Positions 34,414 through 51,327 of a DNA stretch of 64,000 nucleotides are shown here, piece after piece. Every line of letters begins with the position of its first letter. The first letter of the stretch is position 1. Origin of the DNA: a virus. Taxonomy: Duplodnaviria > Caudoviricetes. The stretch is taken from IMG/VR virus record IMGVR_UViG_3300042366_001770, positions 1 through 64,000 of that record, one strand, 5' to 3'. Under the pieces are notes generated by a model, which searched no databases, had not been told where the DNA came from, and worked only from the letters and a program-made list of their open reading frames with translations. Made by a program: the position numbers and the translations under genes.

Positions 34414-34486
34414 TGACCCCACGGGGATTCGAACCCCGATACTTGGAACGAAAATCCAAGGTCCTAAACCGTTAGACGATGGGGCC
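34414..34486 (-). tRNA. tRNA-Glu(UUC)
   Basis: GGCCCCATCGTCTAACGG..AGGAC; anticodon arm TTGGA-TTTTCGT-TCCAA; T loop TTCGAAT. Confidence 0.9.
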
Positions 34487-34526
34487 AGCCACCGTAACTC
34501 AAACGTCAGCCTCCGAAGCATAAAAG

Positions 34527-34602
34527 TAGGGCGTGTACGAGTCGAACGTACCTATGAACACCTTATAAGAGTGTCGGATGCAACCGGCTTACCTTACGCC
34601 CC
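34527..34602 (-). tRNA. tRNA-Ile(UAU) with atypical D arm
   Basis: Acceptor GGGGCGT/ACGCCCT-A; anticodon arm ACACT-CTTATAA-GGTGT; T arm GTACG-TTCGACT-CGTAC; A at position 8 and a weak D stem. Confidence 0.75.
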
Positions 34603-34653
34603 GTGTGTTCTATTCTACATTCGTTATCGGCAGTTGTCAACCCCAACCTTTAG

Positions 34654-34740
34654 CGGAATCTGAGGGATTCGAACCCCCGGAGGATTTTAACCCTCGGCGG
34701 TTTAGTAAACCGCTGCCTTAAACCACTCGGCCAAGATTCC
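34654..34740 (-). tRNA. tRNA-Ser(ACU) with long variable arm
   Basis: GGAATCT/AGATTCC with G73; anticodon arm GCGGT-TTACTAA-ACCGC; variable arm GAGGG-TTAAAA-TCCTC. Confidence 0.9.
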
Positions 34741-34743
34741 AAA

Positions 34744-34815
34744 CTGTCCGACTAGGATTCGAACCTAGAACCAAGCGGTTAACAGCCGCCTACTCTACCG
34801 TTGAGCTATCGGACA
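34744..34815 (-). tRNA. tRNA-Asn(GUU)
   Basis: TGTCCGA/TCGGACA-G; anticodon loop CTGTTAA. Confidence 0.95.
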
Positions 34816-34825
34816 TCATTTACAA

Positions 34826-34896
34826 TTCCGGGGCTAGGATTCGAACCCAGACAAAGAGAACCAAAATCTCTAGTGCTACCGTTACACTACCCCGGA
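34826..34896 (-). tRNA. tRNA-Gln(UUG)
   Basis: TCCGGGG/CCCCGGA; anticodon arm AGAGA-TTTTGGT-TCTCT. Confidence 0.92.
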
Positions 34897-34897
34897 G

Positions 34898-34969
34898 AGC
34901 CGACAGAGGGAATCGAACCCCCGACAGGTTGTTTACAAAACAACTACTCTACCACTGAGTTACGTCGGC
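34898..34969 (-). tRNA. tRNA-Thr(UGU)
   Basis: GCCGACG/TGTCGGC; anticodon arm GTTGT-TTTGTAA-ACAAC. Confidence 0.93.
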
Positions 34970-35683
34970 TTGCAAGACTCGCCATCTCTGACGAGTCAAG
35001 ATCCCTCTATCCACATGGGTAGACAGGACGCTTACATATCATACTCTCGATCCTAGGTCTTGTCCAGCCTCTACCACTTTTATAATTTCCCAAGATTCCA
35101 TATACCTAGTATTTTCATCTGGATGGCATGGTAGAAGTTGTACACACTTTCTTTTAGCATCTGTTTTAGATTCGCAATCACGCATCACAATTTGCACTGT
35201 AATATAGTGATACATTATTCATACTCCTTTTGCCATGAACGCTCAATATCTCGGCGTGTGCGAAGGCGCTTGGGTCTGTTGTCCATAACCGTATCCCGAT
35301 GCTCCTTGTGTCCCTGTCGAACCTCCCACGGCATAACTTTCTTGACCTTGATGATGTTGCGTCGTGGTCGCTGCATATCGTCGTTGTTGTGGAGCGTAAT
35401 CATGCCATTGTCCATTTTCGTGTAAGTAAAAAACCTTCTCAACATTAGGATCGTAAGCCATTAGACAGTATTGTATCGGATAGACTGGTTTTGTCAATAC
35501 TTGTTTTTGTGGCAGTTTTGGTAATTTTATATCACCTTTTTGATAATCTTTTACACCATTATAAGCAAAACCTAACAGAGCAATAATCACTCCAATCCAT
35601 TGAATCATCCGTTCGCTTCTCCTTCTGCGTGGTATCATCATACTCTATGTATCGACGTCTGTCAACACTCAACTTTAGAAAAT

Positions 35684-35765
35684 TCTAAAGTCTTTACGGC
35701 TAAGGACTTACGACGAATCCGGCCGGCCGTCTTTCTCCTAAGTCTTTATTCTTAAAGAGTTTAGG
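35684..35765. repeat. 82-bp double-dyad element, copy 3
   Basis: Boxes at 35684-35712 and 35737-35765; centre CCGGCCGGCCG. Confidence 0.9.
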
Positions 35766-35821
35766 AGCAGCTCACAAGCCTTCAAAAAATCTTCCGTAGT
35801 TTTTGCGTCATCTTTCATAAA

Positions 35822-35893
35822 TAGCCCCGGCAGGAATCGAACCTGCATCTAGAGATTAGAAGTCACTTATTCTATCCATTGAACTACGGGGCC
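35822..35893 (-). tRNA. tRNA-Arg(UCU)
   Basis: GGCCCCG/CGGGGCT-A; anticodon loop CTTCTAA; T loop TTCGATT. Confidence 0.92.
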
Positions 35894-35900
35894 GTCAATA

Positions 35901-36126
35901 CTGCAAGCCCCTACGGCGTCCCATAGAGGCTATGCAGCTTGATGGTGTTATCGTCTTACCATCCTATCATAATTATACGCTAGAGGGTCGATAACTTCAA
36001 CGGAACCACCCGTTTTATCTGGTTGGTTAGACCCTCTCTAGGTTGCACCTTGGGCACTGCAACGAGCCTCATACGCGGGTTTTACCCCGCCGCACTGTGC
36101 CTAAATGCTATTTATACTGGCACAGT
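35901..36126 (-). ncRNA. Candidate structured ncRNA (about six consecutive hairpins)
   Basis: No plausible minus-strand ORF; G.U-compatible stems on the minus strand, e.g. AGCCTCTATGG-GACG-CCGTAGGGGCT. Confidence 0.5.
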
Positions 36127-36140
36127 CCAGTTTGTCAATG

Positions 36141-36455
36141 TCAGGCGGTTGCCTCCGCAGCCACCTTGGATGACTTAGCCTTGTGGCCGTCGCCAGCCTC
36201 CTTGACACCGATACCGAACTTACGATTACGAGCAACCTTCCAACCCTGCTCGCTATACTCCTTCACACCATCGGCCTTGACGAGAGCAAGAGTCTCCTCG
36301 GGCAGACCGTCAGTAAGAGCCTGACGAAGCGTATCCTCAATAACGTCCGTATCCAGACCATCGGCAGCAATCGTCACGTTGAAACTAAAAGCCTTCATAG
36401 TAAACCTCCAAGTAGTAAAGTAAACCAAACTGGAACCAACATAACCAGTATACAT
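36141..36455 (-). CDS. Hypothetical protein (probable start MKAFSF)
   Basis: GGAGG RBS upstream of the internal Met; promoter at about 36447-36475. Confidence 0.65.
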   Translation of the reverse strand: MYTGYVGSSLVYFTTWRFTMKAFSFNVTIAADGLDTDVIEDTLRQALTDGLPEETLALVKADGVKEYSEQGWKVARNRKFGIGVKEAGDGHKAKSSKVAAEATA

Positions 36456-36604
36456 AACTGATTACCGCTTGTCAAGTCTGCCATGAAGGTTTCTAGCGTT
36501 GGCATCGTGGCAGCCACTTGCGTTGCGTTTCTATCATTCTACCCTAGTGTATCGTCACTGTCAAGTCCTTCTCTTGAATGAAAATTCGTTTTTCTTTGAT
36601 TTGT

Positions 36605-36686
36605 TGCAAAGTGTTATCACATAAGCACTTACGTCAAAATGTTGCGGCTGGCCTTGCCCTAAGTTGTTTAGGGTCAAGGCTTTATG
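36605..36686. repeat. 82-bp double-dyad element, copy 4
   Basis: Boxes at 36605-36633 and 36658-36686. Confidence 0.88.
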
Positions 36687-37046
36687 TCAAGCAGGGGTTG
36701 TCCAGCAAGAACAACCGAGCTTCTCCAAAGACTCGCTCAATTCACGAGCCTTCTCGGCAGTCATAGTAGGAGTATAATACGTCCTACCATTATGCATACA
36801 GTTTTCAACCCAATCCTTCGCCTCTCGAAGACCCCAGCCCGTAGAGAGCCTCAAGCTTTTGATGGCTGCTATCTTGTGGTCCCAAAACTGACCATCATAC
36901 CTCACACCATTACAGGCCACCATCATCATGGTATTGCCGGTAGCCTCTTCAATGGCCTTGATGATCCTCTCATACAGATCACCAGTGCAACTGGAGCTAG
37001 AAGCCAGAGCAACCATCTCACGAATCGTCATACCAATATTAATCAT
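36687..37046 (-). CDS. Ribosomal protein bL12 (L7/L12) C-terminal-domain-like protein
   Basis: KIAAIKSLRLSTGWGLREAKDWVE..TAEKARELSESLEKLG resembles the bL12 C-terminal domain signature KI.VIK.VR..TGLGLKEAK.LVE. Confidence 0.7.
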   Translation of the reverse strand: MINIGMTIREMVALASSSSCTGDLYERIIKAIEEATGNTMMMVACNGVRYDGQFWDHKIAAIKSLRLSTGWGLREAKDWVENCMHNGRTYYTPTMTAEKARELSESLEKLGCSCWTTPA

Positions 37047-37881
37047 GTTCTTTCCTCCAAAACGTAAACTTGTTTGCCACTAGTAACTAGCGTAGCGTAT
37101 TCGCTATTATCCCAAATAAACTCGTTGCTATCGCTTTCTCGTCGCCAGTACGGGTCACGAATAGGATTATAATACAACTTCTCAAGATTGTCAACTGGCA
37201 TTTGTCGAACAGGACGAACCTCTTCACACTTTACCCAGCCACTAACATCATGCACACCAGCCTCAAATACCTGCTTGGCCTTATTGGGGCGATTCACCAG
37301 CTTGCATCCAACCATCTCCAATTGGTATTCGGTCGGATTGTAGTAGTATACATCTACTTTTTTGCTACCTTGCATAATCTTTATCTGCCAGTGCATATAG
37401 TTTTTGCCACTAGACAGATGGAATCGAACTTCGGCGTGTAACTTATTCTGTTTCATCTTCCTCATCATCCATGCCCCCAAACATATCTTTCCAGCAGTTA
37501 CCACAAGTACCACTAATTAACAACTCACGCTCATCAGCACTAAGATAGGGCAACTTATCTTGAATATACCCTGAGCCACTAGTCCAGTCAAGAAAATCCT
37601 GTTCATTTACCCACAAAATATATTCGGCCCCACAATGAACACAAGAGGCCACCAACTGTCGATCTCTATCAGCAAAAGCAACCATAAAAGTTCTCCTGTC
37701 TGCACAATATACTTTATCGAGTCACTCTTGTCAAGACCCCTACTTCTGACTGACTATCAGCAACGGCAGCGAATCCGTAGGATTAGCAAAGACAAACAGT
37801 CGGGTTATGCCATACTCGGCCTTGCATTTAACCGTGGCTTCTTTGATATCATTCTGCCAGCGGCCCGCATCTGTTTGCTAG

Positions 37882-37954
37882 TAGGAGCGGTGGGATTCGA
37901 ACCCACACTTGAAGGATTTTAAGTCCTTTGACTCTGCCGTTGGTCTACGCTCCC
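37882..37954 (-). tRNA. tRNA-Leu(UAA) with short variable region
   Basis: GGGAGCG/CGCTCCT-A; anticodon arm AAGGA-CTTAAAA-TCCTT; T loop TTCGAAT. Confidence 0.9.
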
Positions 37955-38009
37955 ATGCTTCAATTATACATATAGTATCGGTACAGTCAAGAGAGAATCT
38001 TGAAAAAAT

Positions 38010-38091
38010 CCTAAGTGGCTTATATCCAAGGACTTACGACGAATTCGGCCGGCCCGGTTTGCCATAAGTCTTTATGTGTCAATCATTTGCG
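38010..38091. repeat. 82-bp double-dyad element, copy 5
   Basis: Boxes at 38010-38038 and 38063-38091; centre CGGCCGGCCCGG. Confidence 0.9.
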
Positions 38092-39261
38092 ACATACCAC
38101 CAGTGGCACTGCTGGCAAAACTTCCAGATCAGACCGTACTTGTCGTATTTCCACACAAGATTATCACACATGCCACACGGACAAATATCACTAAGAGTTT
38201 TGAGTTCCATATTTAGTAGTCGTACAAATCCTTAGTATATTCTTTTGGTATAATAGGACACCAACCCTTGGCTCGCTCCTCATCATATGGAAGCCAGAAT
38301 GGAGCATCACAAGCGTCAACAAATCCAAAATCCACATTCTTGAATGTGTGTGGACACAGTTCTATAGGATTAGCACTGTCCTCATAAAGTGTTCGTTCCT
38401 CATACTTATAATGCCCAATACCTATACCGATATGAGGGCCAAAGTAGTAAATTTTCTCACCATTCTTGGGCGGATTCTTATGAGAATTATTCCATTCCAT
38501 TATTTTTCCCTCGTAACAATCAAGCATTGTGTACCAGTATCACCATCAGTAAACTTCACACACTCATGCGGCCCATAATACCAAGCATCATTCTTGGAGA
38601 AATTGAATACAATCTCCTCTGTCTTTAGATTGACATCATTATACCCACCCTCATAACCAAGGGTAAGAACCCGCATATCGCCCGGATAGTTCTTCAACTG
38701 CTCAATAAGTTCGTTAACGGTCATTTCTTTTTCCTTTTGATGCTTTTCAAGTATATGGGAGACTTTTGATATGGCTTAGTCACAATCTCTATTTCACGAA
38801 TATCAATCGGCCTACCGTAAAACTCTGCATCATTATAATATGATCGTGCAATCTTTTCAGTCTTACAAATCATCTCAATAGATTCATGGATGCTAGCAGC
38901 CCCATACTCACAAACGATAGCGTAGGCTTTCATTTCATAAACCCCACAGAAATAAGATTAGCCAGACAAACAGTTAGAAGTCCAACCACCAAACCCACAT
39001 TAGTATATCCCACCAAATACCCAATACAAGTAGTTGCAATAATATAACTAATAGGCACAGTATTTTGTCGGATAAACTTCATTATACCCTCATTGCTATC
39101 TTTTCGTATTCACTAATCAAGTCTGATACCGTTATACCATGCTCTTCTGCTAAAGTCAATGCCTCTTTCTTGGCAGGACTCATAATCATCATAGGATTCT
39201 TTAGAACCCTGAGAACTTTAATAATCGCTTCTTCTTTAGTCATTCTTTTTCCTTTGTATTA

Positions 39262-39680
39262 AACCCAGCGGATCATTTACGCCCCGATCCTATAACCCAT
39301 ACGATTGCCCTTGTCAGGACCGGATGGAAACCGCCCACGGAAATCCTCCCTGCAAAGTGATAGTCTGCTAGCAACAGTCACTTTGGTCTGGCTCTTGGGA
39401 GCGGTTACTGGTTGTTCGGTATCCGGCTGTTATTTCAGTGATTCTACCCGATGAAAGATAGAACGCAAGCGTAATGTTGCGGTGTTAATTCACTCTATTA
39501 CCCGATGAAGGATAATTCCGGATTGTATGGTCGTGGTGAGGACGCGATCCCCCATAGATTGGCACTACTATCCAACGTATAAGCCCGTTGGCAACCTTTC
39601 CGATGCATTGCATACGGTAGGTTTATCGTAATGGCTTATCCCAACCTAGCCCTACATTGGCCCACGAATGTTTGTGTTGT
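39262..39680 (-). ncRNA. Candidate large (~420 nt) structured ncRNA with its own promoter
   Basis: ORF-free, GC-richer stretch directly downstream of TTGACA-N17-TAGAAT (39687-39715); many stems; two hairpins share the loop UUCAUC. Confidence 0.6.
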
Positions 39681-39752
39681 GCTGTCATTCTACAAGTATT
39701 ATCGTCACTTGTCAAGAGGCTTCTATAGGAATTCTGGAAAAAATTCTGTTGA

Positions 39753-39834
39753 TGCAACCCTATATCACACAAGCACTTACGTCAACATCCTGCGGCCAGC
39801 CTCGTCGTAAGTCCTTTACGATCAAGGCTTTAGG
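39753..39834. repeat. 82-bp double-dyad element, copy 6
   Basis: Boxes at 39753-39781 and 39806-39834. Confidence 0.88.
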
Positions 39835-40069
39835 TCTACTCCAAACTCCAGCCCGCATCCTTCAAGATATGCGAAGTGTGTAAAACGGTAGTTAAACCAT
39901 CAGCATTAGTATAGTCTTTATAGCTTCGCTCATCCAAATAGATATGCTCATCTAGCACATCATTATCATTTAATTCCCATATAGCATCCATAGCAGCATA
40001 TCGTGGAGCCTTGTTGCATGAGTAGATTAGTTCCAATGTTCCACACTTGATATAGTATTTAGCCATGAT

Positions 40070-40708
40070 TTACCTTTCGGGATTAGCATATTGGCGACAA
40101 CATACACAGTTGCACGATCCATAGTTTTCTTCGTCGTCAGACTGAAACTCTCCATAAATACTCTCATCCCAACCATCAAAACTTTCAATACCAACATCTA
40201 TTACGACGGGAATCCACTGTCGATTACGTCGAACATATCCAAAGTTCGCACGATGATGGTCACTATAAGCCAATCCATAAAAATCTAACATACCCACAAT
40301 ATCTGCTATGATACTACTATTTCTACAATCACTATCATAACACTCACCATCACAATATTCATCATTACAGTATGCCATAGGTCGGGCAATTTCTGTAAGG
40401 TATCCATAACCGGTCAATTCACCATCATAACCAGACTTCTGGATTCGTCCTACTTGACCATAAACCTTGGGGGCTAAATCTTTATCTGCTAAAATACTCT
40501 GAATCTTATACGCAAAGTCTGCTTCATTTTTATTTTCAAACTCTTTGAATCCAATACGCTTTTTGCCAAACCTACGTTGTGGGATAATGTAAAAAGCATT
40601 TTTGCTTCCAGCATCATCATATTGTCCAATATATACAGACATAAAAACCTCAGTGTGATGGAAACAGCACGTTAGCCAATCCACGCGGACACAAGTCACA
40701 GTGTACAC
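40070..40708 (-). CDS. Protein-kinase-like fold protein (probable start MSVYIG)
   Basis: GFKEF (Lys), LAPKVYG, catalytic-loop-like YSDHHRANFG and VIDVG (DFG-like). Confidence 0.6.
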   Translation of the reverse strand: MYTVTCVRVDWLTCCFHHTEVFMSVYIGQYDDAGSKNAFYIIPQRRFGKKRIGFKEFENKNEADFAYKIQSILADKDLAPKVYGQVGRIQKSGYDGELTGYGYLTEIARPMAYCNDEYCDGECYDSDCRNSSIIADIVGMLDFYGLAYSDHHRANFGYVRRNRQWIPVVIDVGIESFDGWDESIYGEFQSDDEENYGSCNCVCCRQYANPER

Positions 40709-41405
40709 TATTCTTCGTTTGTGTACAAGTCACAACACCACGACCACGACGGATTTCCGGGCAAGTGATAAACTTCTCACCTTCCAGTACAACCAGTTTC
40801 GGCAACGCTGCTCGCCACGCTGCGGCTTTAGCCTTACCACGCGGACGCTTCGGTGCAATTTTAGTATCACTATCACACCATGCAAACAGTTTGAAACCAG
40901 CAGCCTTAGCCTGTCGCATATCTTCGCCGTCATGAATACTAGCATACATATTTATATACTTGCCAAGTTCGGTAGATAAACGACTATCATAAATATGGGT
41001 ATAAGCCCACATAGTCGGCAGACTACCACCACTAGCAAGAATACTCTCACACGCCCACAGTACGTTATCTACATACTCGGTGTCGAGACTACCATCCTTG
41101 AAAAAGTCGCCACGCTCATGCCAGCGGACATCTTTGTTTTTCTTGACCGCATCCACAAGCATAGAGCGGATACGATTCTTTTCTGTGATAAGATTCTGCA
41201 TACCAGCAGGACGCACACCGGGATAGATATTTTCCAAGTCCTCGGCATAGCAGCCGTTTCCGAGAAAATCACAATCGGGCGGGCAAGTATCACCAACGGG
41301 GCGACTCACCACAATGCAGTTTTCCTTACCCAACTTATCATTACCATTTGCTGTTTTCATCATTTCTCTCCTGTGTGCTGCTATCCTAGCATAGTTTATC
41401 GGCAA
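40650..41405 (-). CDS. Gp88-like phage protein (Cys-rich, radical-SAM-related)
   Basis: NDKLG, TCPPDC..GCYA, VRWHERGDF, WAYTH and TCP..C..C..C. Confidence 0.65.
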   Translation of the reverse strand: MPINYARIAAHRREMMKTANGNDKLGKENCIVVSRPVGDTCPPDCDFLGNGCYAEDLENIYPGVRPAGMQNLITEKNRIRSMLVDAVKKNKDVRWHERGDFFKDGSLDTEYVDNVLWACESILASGGSLPTMWAYTHIYDSRLSTELGKYINMYASIHDGEDMRQAKAAGFKLFAWCDSDTKIAPKRPRGKAKAAAWRAALPKLVVLEGEKFITCPEIRRGRGVVTCTQTKNSVHCDLCPRGLANVLFPSH

Positions 41406-41426
41406 GTCAAGAGGGAATCTTTAGAG

Positions 41427-41442
41427 AGCAAAGCGTGTGCCA
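41427..41442 (-). promoter_or_regulatory. sigma54-type -24/-12 site
   Basis: Minus strand TGGCACACGCTTTGCT (GG-N10-GC). Confidence 0.6.
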
Positions 41443-41466
41443 GTTGTTGCAGAAAATGAAGCAAGT

Positions 41467-41548
41467 CATAAAGTGTTTAGCCGCAAGAACTTACGACGAA
41501 CCCGGCCGGCCGAACTCGCCCTAAGTCCTCTTGGGCAAAGAACTTAGA
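41467..41548. repeat. 82-bp double-dyad element, copy 7
   Basis: Boxes at 41467-41495 and 41520-41548; centre CCGGCCGGCCG. Confidence 0.9.
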
Positions 41549-41557
41549 GCGATTCAC

Positions 41558-41731
41558 CTATTCGGCTTCGATAGGCTCGTCTGCGTAGTAGTTTGAGTTG
41601 GCAAGCACTTCCGGTCTAAACTTACTCAACTTCTTTTCCTTACACTCCACACACACCCTAGCCAGTGGAATACCCCTAGCATCACTTTCCCACCAACTGT
41701 TTTTGTTAGAGCCACATGGACAAGGTTTCAT
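41558..41731 (-). CDS. 57-aa Cys-rich hypothetical protein (not in the ORF track)
   Basis: MKPCPCGS..DARGIPLARVCVEC..; translationally coupled to 41728-41934. Confidence 0.6.
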   Translation of the reverse strand: MKPCPCGSNKNSWWESDARGIPLARVCVECKEKKLSKFRPEVLANSNYYADEPIEAE

Positions 41732-41930
41732 CCAACCAATCCTTTTACTGGGGTTTCATTAGGCATAGGAATATCATTGAGAGCCTTACGATAGCACTCT
41801 AAAATACCCTTCTTATACTCTTCATTAGTCATATTGTCAAGAGATATTCCATCCCATATCTGATAATCGCCACATCGCATAGATACGGCATCATGATACT
41901 TCTGCATTTCCTTGTCGCTAATCCACATTC

Positions 41931-42431
41931 TCATGTTTCAATCTCCTCTTCAGTAAAAAATTCACTAAGATTATAATCATCCCAAATACGCTTAGGAATC
42001 ATATCCTTATGAGTATACTCAACATAATGATCGTCTCCATCATGCCAGATACCACAGTAAGCCATACCCGGCTCAAAATACGTAGCCTCTACACTAAATC
42101 CAAGTTCTTGCAACTTTTCGTAGAGTCCAACCGGAGGACTCCACGCACTATCAAAAGCCATAGTGGCCTGATTACCCACAACGGTAGGTTTCAATCCATG
42201 GGCCTCATTATTATCACTACCAATATCCCACTTAGTACCCCAGTTATTTATGCACCAAGTATACCAGTAGTGTGGGCTAGATTCATCTGTGATAACCTCA
42301 CCCTTCTCATCTCTTGGCACGGGCAGATAATGGTCACAAACCTTGCCTTCCTTATAGGCAAGAACAAACTCCATAACCTTAGACCGATCATTATGCTCAA
42401 TCGTCAGATTATTCTGGCACCAATTAGGCAT
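41931..42431 (-). CDS. DUF1281/YubB (Api92-like) ferredoxin-fold protein
   Basis: MPNWCQN, WYTWCINNWGTKWD, FDSAWSPP and YFEPG. Confidence 0.75.
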   Translation of the reverse strand: MPNWCQNNLTIEHNDRSKVMEFVLAYKEGKVCDHYLPVPRDEKGEVITDESSPHYWYTWCINNWGTKWDIGSDNNEAHGLKPTVVGNQATMAFDSAWSPPVGLYEKLQELGFSVEATYFEPGMAYCGIWHDGDDHYVEYTHKDMIPKRIWDDYNLSEFFTEEEIET

Positions 42432-42906
42432 CTTTTCCCTTTCAGTTGACGCTTACTCGTTCATCACTCTTTCTACCATCCCTGAGAGCCACTGTCAAGG
42501 CCCCGCAAAAGAATTCATAAAAGGATGTCATCTCTTGCAAACACCCTTCATTATCTCCTTCAATAGCATGGGTAATCAACTTTTCTGCAAAATCTGCAAC
42601 CTGATTCCTAATCAACTGCTTGGTACATTCATGAAGCATATCTGTTCTCCGTATTCTGACTGACTACAGCCACTCTAGCCGAATCCGTAGGATTAGATGG
42701 TACACAATGTAGGCATCTTTCTACATACAATCCATGACCATATTTAGAATGAGCATATCTGATAGCGTCCCATTCACTAAAAGATTGAACATAACCGACC
42801 AAACGATTATGTTGCCACACAGCCCACAAATACGGTTTCATCTCTTTCTCCGTTTCGATCATTCTACTATAGAATATCGGCTTGTCAACAGCAAAACTTT
42901 AGTCGT

Positions 42907-42988
42907 CCTAAGTCCTTGTGGAATAACAACTTACAGCAAAATGCTGCGGCCGCACTCTCCCTAAGTCCTTGTGGTATAAGAACTTAGG
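42907..42988. repeat. 82-bp double-dyad element, copy 8
   Basis: Boxes at 42907-42935 and 42960-42988; centre TGCGGCCGCA. Confidence 0.9.
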
Positions 42989-43003
42989 AAGAGCGACCGG
43001 TTT

Positions 43004-43468
43004 TTAGAAAATCATCGCAGCCAAACCGCTCTTGAACAACGCCCCACCAAGGAGGGGGCGACGAACATTGCTAGTACGTTCGGCATAGAAGTTACGAATC
43101 TTACCATCCGGAGTTTGTGCAGTAACAAGGTGTGTGGTACGCACAAACTGATTGTCATGCTTACGATAACGGCTAGTACGATTCAGTCTCTGAATACTAT
43201 CTGCACTCAAACGATGCACACTAATAACCCTAGCCATAAAACGCTCAGGATCACCAGTTACTGGCTGTTCGTACTGAAAGTTATACACACCACCAATACG
43301 AGCATTACTCAGGGTATCGGCAGTACCACGATACACATGAAACAGGATGAAACCAACAACAGCAACAACACAACAAACCATACCAGCAATAACAAACTCG
43401 TTCATTTTCTTTTCCTTTCGATTAGTTAGAAGACACACCAAGCATACCACAAAAAAACTACTTGTCAA
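43004..43468 (-). CDS. Membrane-anchored protein with a WYL/SH3-like domain (probable start MNEFV)
   Basis: N-terminal TM helix; FQYEQP..ERF and LVTAQTPDGKIRNFYAER. Confidence 0.4.
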   Translation of the reverse strand: MTSSFFVVCLVCLLTNRKEKKMNEFVIAGMVCCVVAVVGFILFHVYRGTADTLSNARIGGVYNFQYEQPVTGDPERFMARVISVHRLSADSIQRLNRTSRYRKHDNQFVRTTHLVTAQTPDGKIRNFYAERTSNVRRPLLGGALFKSGLAAMIF

Positions 43469-44551
43469 GTCACAGTTTATTCAACTCGATATTCCAATTT
43501 TTCTTTGCAAATCTCTTCAACGGATGAATAGCGCGTTCACCAATATGCAACGAATAGAATGGCTGAGTCGAATCCACAGGATATAGCTTTACCAAACTAC
43601 CATTACCAAACTCTACTTTAAATCCTGCCTTTTGCAATGATCTAATAATCTGGTTGATATTTTTCATGATACCACCATATTTTCGATGAATGGATATTCT
43701 TTGCCATTCAACTTGACAAACCACTCGTAATTTCTTTGGTAAACTCTTACGGGGCTATACTGGTTGATACGATCCTTTGTAGTAACCGTTTGCCATCCAC
43801 CAGTCTGCAACTTCACAAGACCATTCGGATACAACACCACAACCTTAGTGCTATGTAATTCGATACTAACACTACCATCATACTCGATATATCCACGAGT
43901 ATTATTACCAATTTTACGACTAGTCCGGTTAGTCTTACCACGAACCATAGTAACAGCTTCGGCGTGAGTCATATTCAACCCTTTTCGTAAAGAGAGACAG
44001 TGCAGTAGAAAAAACCAGCGTAAGCAACAACAAAACTTAAACCAATCAGAGCGTCCATTTTAGTTCCTGTGCAGATAATCGTCAAACAGTTTAAAAGCGT
44101 AAAGAAAGGCATACCAACCAACGGTAGAACCTACAAACCATCCACCAATAAACCAGATGGCTAGCGTAGCCCACATCTCGATTTCGTTTTCAGTCATGCT
44201 TCAAATCCTATACTATAGATCGACGCTTGTCAAGTCAAACATTAGTCTTTTTTGGAAGATTCTGGATTGCTTGCAGCGTCTTAGCAACACCATCAAAATC
44301 AAGCCATCCGATCACATCGCTAGTCACAGAAGTATCGTACACAATCTCTCCGGCCATGTCTAGCACAGCAACCTCAAAAAACCCCCTGTCGCCACCATAG
44401 GTGTGCCGATTGCAAACAACGCTGGCTCCGTAACCATTGCCAAACGTATAGGTTTTCTTATATCCGTCGAGCATCTTTATCTCCTTCGTTTTCTTGATTC
44501 TACTCTATAGATCGGTAATGTCAAGAAAAAAAATTAGAAAAAATCTTTAGA

Positions 44552-44633
44552 CGTAAGTTGTTGATAGATAAAGACTTAGGAAAAATTCGGCCGGCCCATT
44601 TTGCCCTAAGTTGTTTAGTGGCAATGGGTTACA
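44552..44633. repeat. 82-bp double-dyad element, copy 9
   Basis: Boxes at 44552-44580 and 44605-44633. Confidence 0.9.
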
Positions 44634-45402
44634 TCGAACAGTTTTAATTCATTAGATATGTAGCCGTACAGCCACAAATAAAAGCCACACTCCACAAAAT
44701 CAGATCACTTATCCTCATCATTCTTCTCCATAAAAAAGAGAGGTGCAGTATTATAACAAAGTATAACCCCGAGAATATAACCAAGTACAACACTAACAAA
44801 ATCAATTTCAAACATCCGTGTTCTCCTATAATTAGAGTCAATCCCCGTAACCTACCCAGAAATCTTCGCCCTTATCATCCTTCATACGCATAAATCCTCT
44901 TTGCTTCATAGTATTATATTCGTTGAGATCCCTGCAAATCTTAGCAAGAATCTCACTAAATAAAAATAAACCACTTACACCAGCAATCGTAAACAGCAGA
45001 GTTACCATAAGTCTCCCTTTCCTGCATCAGTTTACTATAATATATCGTCTTGTCAAGAGTCAAAACTTTAGGCTGACTAAAGCCACACCAGCCAAACCCG
45101 TAGGGTTAGCTAGGACTAACGTAGTTATCCTGCATAGCCTGTCGAACCTTGATAAGATTACGATAGTGTCCGATATGAGTCAACACTGGCTCTTTACGAT
45201 ACAACACGAAATGATTCTCGTCAAGTGGTTTTGGCAGATAGACCACCCTATAACCCATAAGATCAGCGTCAAACTCCAAATCAGCAATTTCCGTTTTGCT
45301 TAGCTTTCTCATCTGTATTTTCTCCTTCTTCTACTTGTATATCGACATTCTATCAAAGCAACTTTAGTTGTCAAAGAAAAAAAAGACAATTTTTTAATTT
45401 GC

Positions 45403-45484
45403 TCTAAAGTGTTGTCGGATAAGGACTTACGTTAAAGTCGGCCGGCCCCGCTCGCCCTAAGTCTTTACGACACAAGGGTTTGCG
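45403..45484. repeat. 82-bp double-dyad element, copy 10
   Basis: Boxes at 45403-45431 and 45456-45484. Confidence 0.9.
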
Positions 45485-45676
45485 TTCGGGCAGTCACTGG
45501 TCATGGTTTTTCCATTAAACTGTATGGGCGTATATAGATGAGGATATAACTTTACATAATTTTCCCGCACCCATACTCTATCACCACGATGATTATCTAA
45601 TACATATACATACGGTTCATCTTTTGACATTATTTATCCTTTCGAAACTGATAATACCCCGTATTATTATTTTTTA

Positions 45677-46039
45677 TCAGTAGTCCTCTCCACCATAATA
45701 ATCGTGGAAGGAATCGATGTCATCTCCATAGTGGCCGTAATCCTCATCGGTCCCCCAACCCGCACTCGCAAGGCCGGACTCGTGATCTCCATCCATACTA
45801 TCATCATAATCGTCAAACCATTCTTCATCTTCGTCATTCTCATTAAATTGTGAAGCAACCTCATGCTCGGCATCTGGATGATAGCCCGCACTGTCCTCGT
45901 CATGAAAGCCATTGTAATCGTCATAGTTGTATGCCATGTCATCATCCTCGTAAGAGTTATCGGGATCGTAGCAGGAATCGGGGTGACTCATCTTTTTCTC
46001 CTTTTCAGTAAGTATACCAAAGAATACCGTGTTCGTCAA
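45677..46039 (-). CDS. Extremely acidic protein (probable start MSHPDS)
   Basis: D/E-rich with no K or R after the probable start; contains DGDHESGLASAGWGTDEDYG. Confidence 0.7.
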   Translation of the reverse strand: MTNTVFFGILTEKEKKMSHPDSCYDPDNSYEDDDMAYNYDDYNGFHDEDSAGYHPDAEHEVASQFNENDEDEEWFDDYDDSMDGDHESGLASAGWGTDEDYGHYGDDIDSFHDYYGGEDY

Positions 46040-46291
46040 CCATGGGTTCGGGATAGATTTCTTCCATCACTTCCTCGATTAGCCCAGTAACCTCCGCCCA
46101 CTCAAGAGGATGACATGACGGCTCATCAATCGGTTCGACCAAACCTTCGTCGTGCATGGCGGAGAGGATAACATTGATTTCATCAAAATCGTGAAGCATT
46201 GTGGATTCTCCTTTGTGGGTTGATGCTTCGATTATATATTAGATATCGGAAACGTCAAGAAAAAAAATTAGCGAAAAAAGTTTTTTCTTTT

Positions 46292-46307
46292 TGGTATAAT
46301 TTTTGCT
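46292..46307 (+). promoter_or_regulatory. sigma54-like -24/-12 site
   Basis: TGGTATAATTTTTGCT (GG-N10-GC). Confidence 0.5.
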
Positions 46308-46313
46308 AGTGGT

Positions 46314-46395
46314 CATAAGTCATTGTGGCATAAGCACTTACGACGCGGCGGGCGGCGCCCTTTTGACGTAAGTTCTTACGCCGTAAGGGTTTACG
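46314..46395. repeat. 82-bp double-dyad element, copy 11
   Basis: Boxes at 46314-46342 and 46367-46395. Confidence 0.9.
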
Positions 46396-46987
46396 TCTAT
46401 TTAAGCAACCCCCTATATATGGGGTAGAACTCATCGAACGACAGGTGACTCATGTACAGTTGTCCATCAAGATAAATACTGTACAAATCATTAGTACCTT
46501 CTGTTACTGTCCACATTACTGAGAGCGTTTTATCTTCAAGATTCTTGAGCATGTGTTTACTCCTCATCAGCAAAGGGGCTCATCTCATCTTCTGACAGAC
46601 TAGCATACTGTGCAGCAAGAGCCTCAACACGCTCACGACTGCCGGGCTTACCAACCGGGAATCGCATAAGATCCTCACCCCCCACAAGTCGGGGGTCGGC
46701 CTTGGTGACCTTGACAGTACCAGCACGACGCAGAGCCTTGCGATTGAACTTGAGAACCTTTTCGGTGACAAGGTATCGCTTTTGGCCGTCAACACTGTAG
46801 ACATAGTGAGCATCCTCACCTTCGATTACCTTATCGTCCGGAATCTCGACGAGCATCGGAATAGCGATACCCTTGAAGATCATCCGGGCCTGACGCTTGG
46901 CGTTTTCAATGATAGCATACTTCGTTTTCATTTTTTCTTCTTTCTTGTTGAGACTATCTTATCAAAGGTTTGGTAGACTGTCAATCC

Positions 46988-47113
46988 CTACATTTGCTCA
47001 ATGTATTCGACATAACCAAATCGGCAACGGGCGACCATAAAAGCCTCAGTATAACCGTCAGCAACAACCGTACCAATCACTTGCATATTACCATTGAAAA
47101 CCAGCCATTCCAT
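46988..47113 (-). CDS. 41-aa hypothetical protein (not in the ORF track), weakly similar to 42629-42862
   Basis: MEWLVFNGNMQVIGTVVADGYTEAFMVARCRFG..; follows the promoter at 47143-47170 and an AG-rich leader. Confidence 0.6.
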   Translation of the reverse strand: MEWLVFNGNMQVIGTVVADGYTEAFMVARCRFGYVEYIEQM

Positions 47114-47201
47114 TTGCTTTCTCTCTTTCTTTCTTTTCAATCATTCTACATTCTAGTATCGGTTTGTCAACTAAAAAAAATCAGTCAAAAAAAGTTTTTT
47201 G

Positions 47202-47217
47202 CGGCACAGCATTTGCT
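47202..47217 (+). promoter_or_regulatory. sigma54-like -24/-12 site
   Basis: CGGCACAGCATTTGCT. Confidence 0.55.
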
Positions 47218-47223
47218 CTATGT

Positions 47224-47305
47224 CGTAAGTCATTGCAGCATAAGCACTTACGTCAAAATCTCGCCCGCTTTTTTGTCGTAAGTCCTTATATATCAAGGGT
47301 TTACG
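47224..47305. repeat. 82-bp double-dyad element, copy 12
   Basis: Boxes CGTAAGTCATT-GCAGCAT-AAGCACTTACG (47224-47252) and CGTAAGTCCTT-ATATATC-AAGGGTTTACG (47277-47305). Confidence 0.92.
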
Positions 47306-48050
47306 CTGGCTATAGCCCATCTTGCCAACCCGTAGGGTTAGCTGGTACAGACGTACACTATGCCGGTGGGGCTAACTTCATTTCACGATATCTATAGAGT
47401 AGTTCAGCAGATAAGTCTTTTATATATAGCCTATACATTTGTCTCTGCTGCTCGGTTGTACATCTATCAAGAACAAACTGCGAGCGTCGTAATTCGTGTT
47501 GCAGTGTAAGGGTGTCGATACTTCTCATGTATTATTCCTTTATGACGCATGAATGAACACTTGTTCACTTACTGTACGATTGTTCACTGTTACAATCCAA
47601 TTCTTTCCGCTACCATCTTCTCGCATGATACTATTGATAATACCAACATGAGCATTACCTTTAGTATCAATAACACTACCATACTTGCCAGTTCGCATAG
47701 CTGTTAGAATCTTATCAAGGCTATTCATTATTTGTTATCCTGTATAGAGATTATTAGTTTCCAACATTCATCGATTGTAAGATTATCACCCACGATATCG
47801 CCATTTTTCCATACTCTATATCTATCAGAGCATCTTGAAGTTTCCCAGTATATCACAGGCTATGCCTCCACCGGAACAACAATTCACTGGCCGCAGCACT
47901 AATACCCGCTTTGATAAGTTCCCGAGCAGCCCCCATTTTAGAGGGGAGTTCATTCTGTGCGAGATGAAGCCACAATTGCAAGTGTTCAGTTTTCATATCT
48001 TCGAAAGTCTTACGATAATGTTCGGGCTTGACAGTCAACATATTACACTT

Positions 48051-48230
48051 TCAGTTAGAGGCTTCCAGCATATCAAACGTGATACACTTGTCAAGATAGA
48101 TCGACCGATACCCTTGTTCGGCCTTGACCGTCAAGAGCATACGATCCCCAAACGTTCTAACCGTGACCACTTCACCGTTCACAATTTCGCCGTTATCATA
48201 TTCGGCGAAAATAAAATCACCAACGTTCAT
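48051..48230 (-). CDS. 59-aa SH3/WYL-like protein (not in the ORF track), paralogous to 49299-49640
   Basis: MNVGDFIFAEYDNGEIVNGEVVTVRTFGDRMLLTVKAEQGYRSIYLDK..; AG-rich leader upstream. Confidence 0.6.
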   Translation of the reverse strand: MNVGDFIFAEYDNGEIVNGEVVTVRTFGDRMLLTVKAEQGYRSIYLDKCITFDMLEASN

Positions 48231-48625
48231 TTTCTTTCTCTCTTTCTTTCTTACTCTTTATATCGACATTCTACATTCGAAACTTTAGTTGTCAAGAAAA
48301 GAAAATCAGCAGATTGCAAAATCGGCCACAACATAGCCCATATCGTCAATCTGAATGTATCCACCATCATCCATAAATCCTAACTCATCGTCAATGGCAA
48401 TCTCATTACCATTAGCACGAACATGGTCAAGCAAATCCATGGCAAAGGCCACACGATTTACAAACGTCGTCATTTCCGTATTGTTGATAAGGTCAACCAA
48501 CTCAGCCTTAGTATTCAGAACAATCAGGTTTGCCATTTTCAATCTCTCTTTCTTTCTTTTCACTTATTCTACATATCATTATCGTACTTGCAAGAAAAAA
48601 AAATTAGAAAAAGAAAATTATTTTT

Positions 48626-48641
48626 TGGCATGATATTTGCT
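48626..48641 (+). promoter_or_regulatory. sigma54-like -24/-12 site
   Basis: TGGCATGATATTTGCT. Confidence 0.6.
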
Positions 48642-48647
48642 ATGCGT

Positions 48648-48729
48648 CGTAAGTCGTTGATATATAAGCACTTACGTCAAAATTGCGGGCGCGTTTTCGT
48701 CGTAAGTCCTTAAGCCGTAAGGGTTTACG
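48648..48729. repeat. 82-bp double-dyad element, copy 13
   Basis: Boxes at 48648-48676 and 48701-48729. Confidence 0.92.
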
Positions 48730-49298
48730 TCGATACCCCATAGGTGGGGTGCGCTGACCGGCCGGATTAGGTAACACACCCCTATTGGGGGGTTACCATG
48801 CCTTGAACAAAAACGCTCTACCCCATCCGCACGACGATATCCCCCATCCGGGGCAGTCCCACAACCAATCGGGCAACCCCTTACTTTGGGGGTGGTGATA
48901 ACCGTCAACGTGTAGTGTACGGTTGTCTCCCGGAACACGTTGCACAGTGCATCCCGATTCTTCAAGCCGTACGATCATTTCTGAAATGTTCATTGTATTT
49001 CCTTTTTCAAGAATGGCAAAGCCTATAATACTTAGCCCACAACTCATCTACAACAAACTGAACAATCCTATCATGAGAACCACGGCAAACGTAATACCCC
49101 ATATGGATATCGAATAATGCGAACGTACCATCCTCTTGGGGATGATAGGTAAACCCACACTTATAAGCATAGGCATTAATTTTACCCTTTATCGTTTCAA
49201 TCTTAGGGGGCTTTCTCATTTTCCTTCTCTCTTTCTTTTCACTCATTCTACATTAGGTATCGGCAATTGCAAGAAAAGAAAACAGCAAATCTTTTCGA

Positions 49299-49640
49299 CT
49301 ACCAACGCCCCCTATATCGGGGGACGTATCCATACTTCACAAGGTTATTATCCTTCCACGCATCATATCCATCGTCGGTGTTGCGAACCACCCGACGGCG
49401 GGGGTCACCCTCGACCATGGTGAACGTGACATCGGTAGCCTTCTCGAAGTAGATCGACCGGAACCCGTCCGCAGTCTCGACCACGAGCAAATTACCCTTA
49501 CCCTCGATTTTTCGTTGACTCTTGACGATACCCTCAATTCGAAGAGGGGCGGGATCCTTCGACCCCTGATAGTTGCAGACAATCCGGGTTCCCACAACGT
49601 CAACTCCACCATTAGCACGGGGGCGAGTAAAGATAGCCAT
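49299..49640 (-). CDS. SH3/WYL-like hypothetical protein
   Basis: IEGIVKS..LLVVETADGFRSIYFEK. Confidence 0.5.
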   Translation of the reverse strand: MAIFTRPRANGGVDVVGTRIVCNYQGSKDPAPLRIEGIVKSQRKIEGKGNLLVVETADGFRSIYFEKATDVTFTMVEGDPRRRVVRNTDDGYDAWKDNNLVKYGYVPRYRGRW

Positions 49641-49742
49641 TTTACTTTTCCTTTTTTCTAGTCTTATCGTTCCGTTTCAATCATTCTACATTACTTATCG
49701 GCCAACGCAAGAAAAAAAAATAGAAAATCTTTTTGTTTTTTG

Positions 49743-49758
49743 TGGCACAATATTTGCT
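49743..49758 (+). promoter_or_regulatory. sigma54-type -24/-12 site
   Basis: TGGCACAATATTTGCT, near-consensus. Confidence 0.6.
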
Positions 49759-50103
49759 GCCCGAGCAGATTAGCTAATCCGCCCATCTTACCTATTATGA
49801 AATCCCCATCCAATCGGCATTTTCGATACAATAATCGTAGAAAATATCGTTGATTTTTTCTTCCATCATATTTTCGGAACGAATCCACACCCCGTCATGG
49901 ATCCTATTCCGAATCTCGATTTTGAACATGTTTCCGGCGTGTACGATTCGCACGTTATGCGACTCGTCGCCAAAAATCTTTTGAACACAATTTTGAATCT
50001 TTGCAATCGTCAACATTTTTCTACCCTTCTCTTTCGTTTCCATCATTCTACAAATAGTATCGGCAATTGCAAGAAAAAAAATTAGAGAAAAAAAGATTTT
50101 TTG

Positions 50104-50119
50104 TGGCATACTATTTGCT
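50104..50119 (+). promoter_or_regulatory. sigma54-type -24/-12 site
   Basis: TGGCATACTATTTGCT. Confidence 0.6.
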
Positions 50120-50276
50120 GCGGCTATCCCCCACCTATGGGGGGTTTTTTCGTTTTGTGCCGTTATTGAGAATAAATCTCAAAAAGCCGCCCGGAGGGCA
50201 TAAACAGTAAGCGACACATACCATAAATGTATCACCTAAACCTCACAGATGGCCCCTGAATAGTCTTTATAATCTA

Positions 50277-50495
50277 TCAGTTTTGATTATTTGATGCTAA
50301 GATGCCTTGCTTCTTTGGTCTGCCTCGACTCTTTTTGAGACTTAGCTTTCGCCTTTGTCGTCTGATCATGGCCGTTGTAACATTTTGCCCGGTCATTTGA
50401 CTAAGCTTAACAGCAAGTTCCTCATCTCGCACAACCCCGTGATTATTCTTTATAAATTCCATCTCTTCGTTTGACCACTTTTTGTAGTTAGCCAT
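50277..50495 (-). CDS. Small HTH/Myb-like DNA-binding protein with an AT-hook-like tail
   Basis: KKWSNEEMEFIKNN..EELAVKL..TTAMIRRQRRKL, followed by RGRPKK. Confidence 0.55.
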   Translation of the reverse strand: MANYKKWSNEEMEFIKNNHGVVRDEELAVKLSQMTGQNVTTAMIRRQRRKLSLKKSRGRPKKQGILASNNQN

Positions 50496-50688: not shown

Positions 50689-51327
50689 ATGAGCAAAAAG
50701 AAAAACCCACTACCGAACAACGTGAATGAAGAAGAGTTTCTTACAGTTTTAGAAAACATTAGCAAAAGATTAGCCTACAAATTTAATTTTGGATATCATA
50801 GTATTGAAGACATGAAACAACAGGCAGCTATATTTGCTCTTGAAGGTTTAAAAAAGTACGATAACTCTCGCCCACTAGAAAACTTTTTATGGACCCATGT
50901 TCGTAATCGGTTATTTAATTACAAACGAGACAACTACCAAAGGCCCGATAAACCCTGTCTAAGTTGTCGCTTTTATGACAAACACTGTGCCAATTCACAA
51001 AATCAATGCACAGAATTTAAAAATAAAAATGATTGCGAAGAATATGATGCTTGGTATACTCGCAATATGAATAAGAAGAATATCATGAAGCCCGTTGCTA
51101 TTGAAGATGTTGGAGATAATTCTCTTAATTTACACTCATTAGAATCAGTAGCCGATTATGTTAATAATAAACAAATTTTCGACCTACTAGACAAGCACAT
51201 TCCTGCACCACATAGAGAAACCTATCTTAAACTAAAACACGGAGATAAAATTTATAAGTCTGATCTACAAAAGATTTTACCTATTATTAAAGAGATACTA
51301 GATACTCATGGAAAATCAAAATCATAA
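50689..51327 (+). CDS. Phage sigma70-family factor (region 2) with a Cys-rich insertion
   Basis: IEDMKQQAAIFALEGLKKYDNSRPLENFLWTHVRNRLFNYKR matches sigma region 2; followed by CLSC..C..C..C. Confidence 0.65.
   Translation: MSKKKNPLPNNVNEEEFLTVLENISKRLAYKFNFGYHSIEDMKQQAAIFALEGLKKYDNSRPLENFLWTHVRNRLFNYKRDNYQRPDKPCLSCRFYDKHCANSQNQCTEFKNKNDCEEYDAWYTRNMNKKNIMKPVAIEDVGDNSLNLHSLESVADYVNNKQIFDLLDKHIPAPHRETYLKLKHGDKIYKSDLQKILPIIKEILDTHGKSKS

Follow-up and report, generated by a model that had tools for sequence, protein, structure and literature searches.

Which factor reads a set of bacterial-type promoter motifs that stand beside the early promoters of a lake phage is the question raised by the DNA analysed here. 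The window under study is the first 64 kb (64,000 nucleotides) of the 128,328-bp IMG/VR virus record IMGVR_UViG_3300042366_001770 (35.8% G+C), which represents the lineage of an uncultured 128-kb lake siphovirus. A preliminary description of this DNA had claimed that six GG-N10-GC sites resembling the sigma54 -24/-12 promoter occur between 41,427 and 50,119, five of them on the plus strand and a near-perfect one on the minus strand. All six were found to be present, with 0–2 mismatches to TGGCAC-N5-TTGCW and with the GG and GC dinucleotides exactly 10 bp apart in every case, and the minus-strand site carries no mismatch at all (Table 1). Our reading, to which we give a probability of roughly one half, is that host sigma54 RNA polymerase would dock at these elements or use them as promoters, within a repeated early-control module.

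The pattern GGYAY-N5-TTGCT was matched eight times in the window, against 0.37 ± 0.68 matches expected, and none of 100 shuffles reached eight. Two of these matches, at 47060–47074 (-) and 62837–62851 (+), are additional to the six sites; both lie within open reading frames (ORFs) and look like chance. The bare consensus, when allowed two mismatches, was not clearly enriched (30 matches vs 21.9 expected, with four of 100 shuffles reaching 30), and the signal therefore sits in the near-perfect copies. A rescan with a position weight matrix is circular at the constrained positions and was not used as evidence. Variant positions in the population were taken from contigs of two wastewater runs labelled RNA-Seq (probably DNA) and of two DNA runs, which yielded neither transcript starts or ends nor strand; a single one of the 40 positions listed (13 further ones exist) falls inside the six motifs, an A>G change at 49749 that keeps the purine at -20. 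Assignments of the motif to a MotA-box-like sequence, to a Bacteroidota -7 element or to a sigma70 -35/-10 pair were each rejected by reading, as the partner elements that they require were absent.

Relatives were represented by 69 loci from viral contigs, retrieved with the sigma-factor protein of the phage (39–100% identity). Most of these loci contain the element again in their early, minus-strand arm. In all, 100 unique copies were counted in ~270 kb of early-side DNA vs 3 in ~438 kb of late-side DNA. The 22 representative loci held 92 copies against 2.26 ± 1.53 in block shuffles. Across whole related records the copies were clustered within a few kb, for instance all seven copies of G005 at 118.3–124.4 kb of a 223-kb record, and the reversed-pattern control gave zero. 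The geometry of the element is equally strict. GGCA was followed by TTGC at an offset of 10 in 101–104 occurrences vs a background of 1–30 elsewhere (101 vs 1–12 at any other offset in one count), and no variants of ±1 were seen, offsets 9 and 11 being at background. No peak at any offset was obtained for GGCA to GGCA, TTGC to TTGC or TTGC to GGCA; since only the GGCA to TTGC order peaks, the two halves are not interchangeable half-sites. The positions that the search pattern left free showed T at -26 in 99 of 113 copies, a purine at -20 in 106 and T at -16 in 86, while the flanks beyond these preferences were not conserved.

The consensus of the element, TTTGGCAY-R-NN-A-T-TTGCW, equals the sigma54 (RpoN) -24/-12 promoter consensus, which is quoted as TGGCAC-N5-TTGCT in an excerpt of PMC12316311. 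The resemblance reported in the preliminary description is thus real, with the core and the free positions T-26, R-20 and T-16 in agreement. That description had also named loss of the GG/GC spacing in homologous regions as evidence that would count against it; the spacing proved strictly conserved in the early regions of many relatives, and on this point the claim therefore passed. With all specified positions and three flanking preferences matched, a rigid spacing, a fixed order of the halves and maintenance across lineages whose neighbouring repeats have changed, the likeness to the sigma54 consensus is too specific for accident, and we take the element to be conserved and not a local accident.

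The features that surround the six sites are collected in Table 1. Minus-strand genes extend from position 1 to ~50.2 kb and encode a ligase, Thy1, UvdE, methyltransferases, 8 tRNAs and numerous small early genes. From 50.5 kb the genes lie on the plus strand and encode a sigma70-family factor (50689–51327), a terminase, a portal protein, a 4719-aa fibre-like protein and a 5741-aa tape-measure protein. Within the early arm the element belongs to a module which, on the gene-sense strand, consists of two inverted repeats with a GC-rich core, one to four elements, an A/T tract of ~31 bp, a sigma70-type promoter and a small gene; this order recurs in the present genome and in the relatives. The plus-strand sites had been placed just past the A/T tract upstream of minus-strand sigma70 promoters, and this was borne out at all five, where a tract of 30–33 bp separates the motif from the -35 hexamer. 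The tract is made of phased A and T runs that start directly past this hexamer, and one repeat family (D7) spans both tract and motif. The plus-strand elements consequently cover roughly -67 to -82 of minus-strand promoters of the type TTGACA/TTGCAA-N16-TAGAAT, four of which came from the promoter scan and one, at ~49684–49711, from reading of the sequence only (-35 TTGCGT, ~49711–49706). The 41427 site is arranged differently: 17 nt separate it from the -35 of the promoter TTGACT-N16-TAGGAT downstream, both have the direction of the gene 40650–41405 (GP88/DUF7227 family), and a dyad element (41463–41550) stands ~20 bp upstream of the site. As a separate observation, the early sigma70-type promoters between 42861 and 50072 fall into two classes told apart by a box that is kept in relatives, which is either CCGATA in the spacer, 3 nt past the -35, or CGATATA, 2 nt past the -10.

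Table 1 Features of the early-control region (positions in the window)
Feature	Position	Strand	Remarks
Sigma54-type -24/-12 element	41427–41442	-	TGGCACACGCTTTGCT; 0 mismatches to TGGCAC-N5-TTGCW
Sigma54-type element	46292–46307	+	TGGTATAATTTTTGCT; 2 mismatches; faces dyad 46310–46397, away from early genes
Sigma54-type element	47202–47217	+	CGGCACAGCATTTGCT; 1 mismatch; faces dyad element 47220–47307
Sigma54-type element	48626–48641	+	TGGCATGATATTTGCT; 1 mismatch; faces dyad element 48644–48731
Sigma54-type element	49743–49758	+	TGGCACAATATTTGCT; 0 mismatches; no dyad after it
Sigma54-type element	50104–50119	+	TGGCATACTATTTGCT; 1 mismatch; plus-strand intrinsic terminator 7–9 nt later
A/T tract (A runs then T runs)	46259–46291		Equivalents 47171–47201, 48595–48625, 49712–49742, 50074–50103
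Sigma70-type early promoter	46231–46258	-	TTGACG-N16-TATAAT
Equivalent sigma70-type promoters	47143–47170, 48566–48593, ~49684–49711, 50045–50072, 41383–41410	-	
Dyad element, ~88 nt	46310–46397		Two inverted repeats of CGTAAGT-type boxes, GC-rich core between
Intrinsic terminator	50126–50155	+	8-pair stem (50126–50145) then TTTTTCGTTT
Early gene, 124-aa protein, fold unrecognised	46557–46931	-	In or beside motif cluster of every motif-bearing relative examined

The dyad element occurs in 11 copies between 35680 and 48731, and the motif adjoins only four of them (46310–46397, 47220–47307, 48644–48731 and 41463–41550). Each dyad comprises four CGTAAGT-type boxes in alternating orientation, often with the core GGCCGGCC, which permit alternative pairings (1:2 with 3:4, or 2:3). 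The preliminary description had further held that the sigma54-type sites are locked to the dyad, with box1 beginning exactly 8 bp after the -12 C. This distance is exact at three sites (46306/46314, 47216/47224 and 48640/48648), which are copies of a single 133-nt repeat family (D3; 63–74% identity), while it varies from 5 to 17 bp in the relatives. A de-duplicated tally returned exactly three instances at 8 bp, presumably the three copies of this genome, whose number they match. The lock is for these reasons most simply explained by local duplication and not by a conserved constraint.

What varies between lineages is the repeat and not the element. The inverted repeats read CGTAAGT...ACTTACG in this genome and in L014, L015, L034 and L049, and CTGCCA-N4-TGGCAG in L040, L045 and L053, with the sigma54-type element unchanged; a host-side reader therefore fits better than a fast-evolving phage protein. 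Several relatives (L015 3870–3895, L049 6360–6385) have an inverted repeat of another kind, TGTCAAG-N5/6-TTGACAA, in the stretch that separates A/T tract and element; it could represent an operator or two divergent -35 boxes. The clade of L017, L020, L024 and L052 had at one point been considered motif-free, which was rejected when its early module, including the element, turned up at another place in the genome.

Lastly, the early arm is closed at its right edge, past the last element, by the plus-strand terminator at 50126–50155, the best-scoring terminator-like site in 41–51 kb, which faces a minus-strand terminator-like site at 50188–50200. A motif with a G-run/T-run terminator after it is seen again in L036, L045, L049 and L053, and the L022/L025/L029 group has the two in reversed order. 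The scan of the early arm gave no other plus-strand promoter-like feature of comparable quality, only several weak 9/12 matches. A plus-strand terminator at the edge of the early module is compatible with plus-strand (antisense) transcription but is no proof of it.

Taken as sigma54 sites, the elements would act as follows. Host sigma54 RNA polymerase holoenzyme would dock at them, five being back-to-back with strong sigma70 early promoters and pointing in the opposite direction. An activator, either host-encoded or an unrecognised phage protein, would fire them and so produce plus-strand transcripts that begin at the dyad, are antisense to the early cassette upstream and end with the terminator at 50126–50155. 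The sixth element (41427) would work in tandem with, and overlapping, the sigma70 promoter of gene 40650–41405. What the sequence shows is the identity to the consensus, together with its conservation, spacing, position and confinement to the early arm; binding by the holoenzyme, firing and any effect on early gene expression are proposals. Docked polymerase might fire, block or simply be held, and the roles put forward in the preliminary description, namely antisense shut-off of early cassettes, a roadblock or sink and a link to host nitrogen or stress state, are hypothetical.

Several observations weigh against this reading. On our own crude gene and promoter calls, from which the counts of orientation and of distance to a -35 derive, 70 of 106 unique early-side copies point away from early genes and 36 point with them, and in the window five of the six sites are directed away. 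Only 41427 (-) lies upstream of a gene in the same direction; what follows downstream of the five plus-strand sites is in each case the 3' end of a minus-strand gene and never a plus-strand gene. The back-to-back placement beside sigma70 early promoters noted in the preliminary description is indeed the commonest arrangement in the family, with 18 of the 70 away-pointing copies at 30–34 nt and 8 at 40–44 nt from a sigma70-like -35. Among the 36 sense copies, 7 lie at 35–39 nt and 5 at 50–54 nt from such a hexamer. The distance is similar in both orientations (30–44 nt), as expected for an upstream binding site. Downstream of 105 unique copies we found a convergent partner 5–7 nt past the -12 C in 20 cases, a CGTAAGT-type box at 5–17 nt in 20, a TGCCA..TGGCA palindrome in 8 and none of the features looked for in 54. 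Convergent pairs resemble an operator array, because two holoenzymes cannot fit simultaneously at 5–7 nt; divergent pairs and arrays of up to four copies also occur. In L049, four tandem TTTTGGCA half-elements without the TTGC half stand at 8470–8560, just upstream of a full element. The motif at 8415–8429 of the same locus precedes a homologue (59% identity) of the gene 46988–47113, and its candidacy as a motif-only promoter, the only such case, was dropped as a weak overlapping sigma70 reading, TTGACG-N19-TATATG, is also possible. Moreover, in the outgroup L059 the repeats, tract and promoter are present and the element is absent, which makes the element an optional insert of the module; the whole records of L059 and L066, only 45–53% complete, hold no copy.

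The phage itself offers no obvious partner for sigma54. Neither a Sigma54_DBD nor a Sigma54_activat domain was detected in six phage records (this one and five related ones, three of them at least 90% complete), so that the phage-encoded enhancer-binding protein sought after the preliminary description was not found; the inverted-repeat pairs adjoin the element but, compared with what is expected of enhancer sites, lie downstream of most copies. Bin labels disagree on the host: contigs of relatives fall into bins assigned to Rickettsiales, Alphaproteobacteria, Flavobacteriales and Methylophilaceae, probably through shared low G+C, and rpoN is present in two of the three such bins searched, where binning is no proof of host.

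Much of this would be accounted for if the element were instead the site of a phage-encoded (or host) DNA-binding protein regulating the sigma70 early promoters from about -75, for example in early shut-off, its sigma54 likeness being coincidence or mimicry. We hold this to be the main and a serious rival, though the less probable of the two. Besides the similar distance in both orientations and the half-elements standing alone in tandem, it is favoured by the 36–40 bp palindromes that convergent pairs form, by the arrays of 2–4 copies and by the TGCCA-N4-TGGCA palindromes of some lineages. A match to all 11 specified consensus positions and three flanking preferences would, however, be very unlikely for an unrelated protein, and neither half ever takes the place of the other or recurs at the helical repeat. 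A candidate for such a protein is the product of the 124-aa early gene. Each of the 20 loci that bear the motif and extend far enough into the early DNA encodes it within the motif cluster, as do G009 and G012; the gene is found wherever the motif occurs and the region is complete, and is absent from the two records lacking the motif, G010 and G011. A phyletic contrast of 20/20 vs 0/7 was rejected as overstated, L017, L020, L024 and L052 having been wrongly taken as motif-free, and the co-occurrence amounts to one independent contrast (the L059/L066 outgroup). The protein has no Pfam or PHROG family and no Atlas match, its AlphaFold model is weak (pLDDT 71, pTM 0.30), and Foldseek gave no PDB match at E ≤ 0.001 and no recognisable DNA-binding fold; its 2043 metagenomic homologues are likewise without a domain. 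One source labels some of these homologues TrmD; none of the 120 matches listed has a precomputed Pfam entry. The 124-aa protein is accordingly no more than a candidate partner of the motif. Two further proteins encoded right beside the region, the sigma70-family factor and an adjacent 72-aa protein, do not track the element, because both are also present in the motif-free outgroup (L059, L066). The latter (50277–50495, minus strand; divergent from the sigma-factor operon) is basic, with an SRGRPKK stretch read as AT-hook-like; it is represented by 57 ORFs across the 69 loci plus the present record and has a weak PHROG match to a D5-like transcriptional regulator.

Within the sigma54 reading, and included in the probability given to it, lies a special case which we regard as improbable: the plus-strand elements would be promoters of short structured RNAs, the dyads, as sigma54-dependent multi-copy small RNA genes. 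The CGTAAGT-type hairpin that follows 20 of 105 copies lies approximately at the expected sigma54 start. L053 has four distal inverted repeats with a plus-strand terminator-like score and none with a minus-strand one, and its region 5270–5350 folds on the plus strand with z = -4.9, which would suit short RNAs transcribed from the element on the plus strand; overall, however, the number of terminator-like sites in this locus does not exceed that in shuffles (14 vs 10.3 ± 3.0). Hairpin 2 of the dyad shows a plus-strand wobble bias (25 G-T vs 12 A-C mispairs), but hairpin 1 has the opposite bias (6 G-T vs 12 A-C). In the present genome both strands of the dyads fold about equally (z from -1.7 to -2.8 for plus and from -2.6 to -3.3 for minus), the dyad elements gave no RNAalifold consensus structure and no Rfam match, and 8 of the 11 dyad copies in the window are listed as being without an adjoining motif. 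It is very unlikely that the element is a promoter of the phage sigma factor or of a phage RNA polymerase, or a replication-origin iteron near the strand switch at 50 kb. The sigma-factor gene adjoins the region, the cumulative GC skew has its minimum at ~50–52 kb, and the copies are repeated with A/T tracts alongside; but the 5-bp gap between the halves does not fit sigma70-family -35/-10 geometry, the sigma gene occurs in L059 and L066 whose records have no motif, and the late, plus-strand promoters look different (TTGACA-N16-TATTAT). No T7-type RNA polymerase domain was found in five records, in a search run without a positive control, and the giant ORFs encode a tape-measure and a fibre protein and not polymerases. 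Unlike a single origin, the copies extend over 9 kb with one set per cassette, and the skew minimum also coincides with the switch in transcription direction. The least probable explanation of all is that the sites are functionless, carried in a recently duplicated promoter cassette or present by chance. Membership of the five plus-strand sites in the local repeat families D3 and D7 speaks for it and accounts for the identical 8-bp distance to box1, yet the comparative data contradict it, with counts 40-fold above shuffles and an element kept across lineages whose sigma factor is only 42–60% identical and whose flanks are not conserved.

Sigma54-dependent docking remains the reading that we carry forward, and it may be compared with known systems. 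The enhancer-dependent -24/-12 promoters that sigma54 (RpoN) serves in bacteria, glnAp2 and pspA among them, share with the phage element the core, the invariant GG and GC with rigid 10-bp spacing, the T at -26 and the purine at -20. Inverted-repeat pairs also lie nearby, as enhancer sites would, and the 41427 site has the canonical order of repeats, element and gene. Differences are that most phage copies are directed away from genes, that convergent and divergent arrays occur, that the phage has no enhancer-binding protein or sigma54 of its own and that the repeats lie downstream of most copies. Divergent sigma70/sigma54 promoter pairs are found at activator-target loci such as pspF-pspA and norR-norVW, which resemble the phage module in their back-to-back promoters, with ~90–100 bp between inferred starts, and in the bent or A/T-rich DNA and inverted repeats of the shared region. 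At those loci, the activator is the product of the sigma70 side and an operon is expressed from the sigma54 side, whereas in the phage the sigma70 side drives small early genes and the sigma54 side is without a gene. Sigma54-dependent small RNA genes (Qrr1-5, GlmY/GlmZ) are similar in being multi-copy short units with a sigma54-type promoter followed by hairpins, and some relatives have a T-rich tail; unlike these, the phage units match no family and yield no consensus RNA structure, and the dyads of this genome are not followed by a clear terminator. Enterobacteria also contain orphan or intragenic binding sites of the sigma54 holoenzyme, which are roadblocks or have no known transcript. These are likewise high-affinity consensus sites not positioned to drive a gene, but those of the phage are intergenic, regularly spaced from strong promoters and conserved within the lineage.

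To our knowledge, sigma54 transcription is the one bacterial system that depends on an activator powered by ATP, and very little is known of its use by phages. Within the texts available to our literature search on sigma54 promoters in phages, only Pseudomonas phage YuA was found, for which an excerpt of PMC10914365, citing Ceyssens et al. 2008, describes a sigma54-like promoter seen by transcription start site (TSS) mapping. As in YuA, according to that excerpt, a host-type sigma54-like promoter stands beside sigma70-like ones in a phage genome. The excerpt ties a single YuA promoter (P015) to a sigma54-like region, in contrast to the up to 19 copies per 10 kb seen here, which have a fixed place by each early sigma70 promoter, are mostly antisense and are conserved across a large uncultured family. 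Since this precedent exists, the early-promoter-linked arrangement is a new variant of a known feature and not a new kind.

Further observations concern the genome as a whole and its possible host. The phage has no close cultured relative by megablast against phages, and tblastn with the terminase gave at most 28% identity; its DNA is present in many lake-water metagenomes, and among the data sets listed as containing 41400–50200 none is recorded as RNA. The region 32000–50000 of the early arm is a compositional island with 41–46% G+C vs 30–35% elsewhere in the genome. Lake-metagenome contigs join across 41731–41970, 42888–45405 and 44601–47259, at or near promoter and dyad repeats, which suggests population variants with early cassettes swapped or deleted via recombination between repeats. 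Eight tRNA genes lie at 34116–37954 on the early-gene strand, some directly after sigma70-type promoters, and the adjoining stretch 36069–36131 (-) matches the Pistol ribozyme (52.9 bits vs a gathering score of 34.5, E 2.4e-7). At 45677–46039 (-), next to a 64-aa gene, a 120-aa early protein was read by eye, unverified, as strongly acidic (D/E/Y-rich) and is possibly a DNA mimic. CCCC-loop-GGGG hairpins (46410–46426, 49300–49320 and others) overlap the last codons of several small early genes and have a T-run on neither strand; by reading, the genes ending near 46397 and 49299 share similar C-terminal ...P-x-Y-R-G peptides. Outside the window, the 5741-aa ORF (107902–125127 of the record) has a phage minor-tail (tape-measure) domain, a length that would imply an exceptionally long tail, and the 4719-aa ORF (79087–93246) carries Ig and YadA-head repeats. 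The gene at 11187–12146 (-) encodes a type IV pilin-like DUF1559 protein that bears a methylation motif at its N terminus; its nearest Atlas clusters are commonest in Planctomycetota, making it a possible host clue toward that phylum. According to an excerpt of PMC12316311, Planctomycetota, Verrucomicrobiota and Bacteroidota possess a sigma54 regulon.

What the locus presents is an element kept at a fixed place by early promoters across a large, abundant, uncultured family of lake phages in which no phage activator was found. If sigma54 polymerase binds, the family would open three questions to study in a natural setting: by what means a virus exploits or neutralises the sigma54 holoenzyme, whether closed complexes of the latter are roadblocks or supercoil-sensitive antisense promoters, and whether an enhancer-binding protein can be replaced by small phage proteins. 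The element would then also be a host marker, limiting the hosts to rpoN-bearing bacteria. More speculatively, and we offer this as a tentative idea that we think doubtful, docking arrays beside nearly every strong sigma70 early promoter, in a phage without an enhancer-binding protein, could be fired or locked by a small phage early protein, the 124-aa one being one candidate, with the outcome that the early programme is shut down by antisense transcripts or by small RNAs made from multiple copies. This would amount to phage-borne drive of sigma54 polymerase without a classical AAA+ activator. Should a phage protein bind instead, the family would hold a viral regulator that has converged on the sigma54 promoter sequence.

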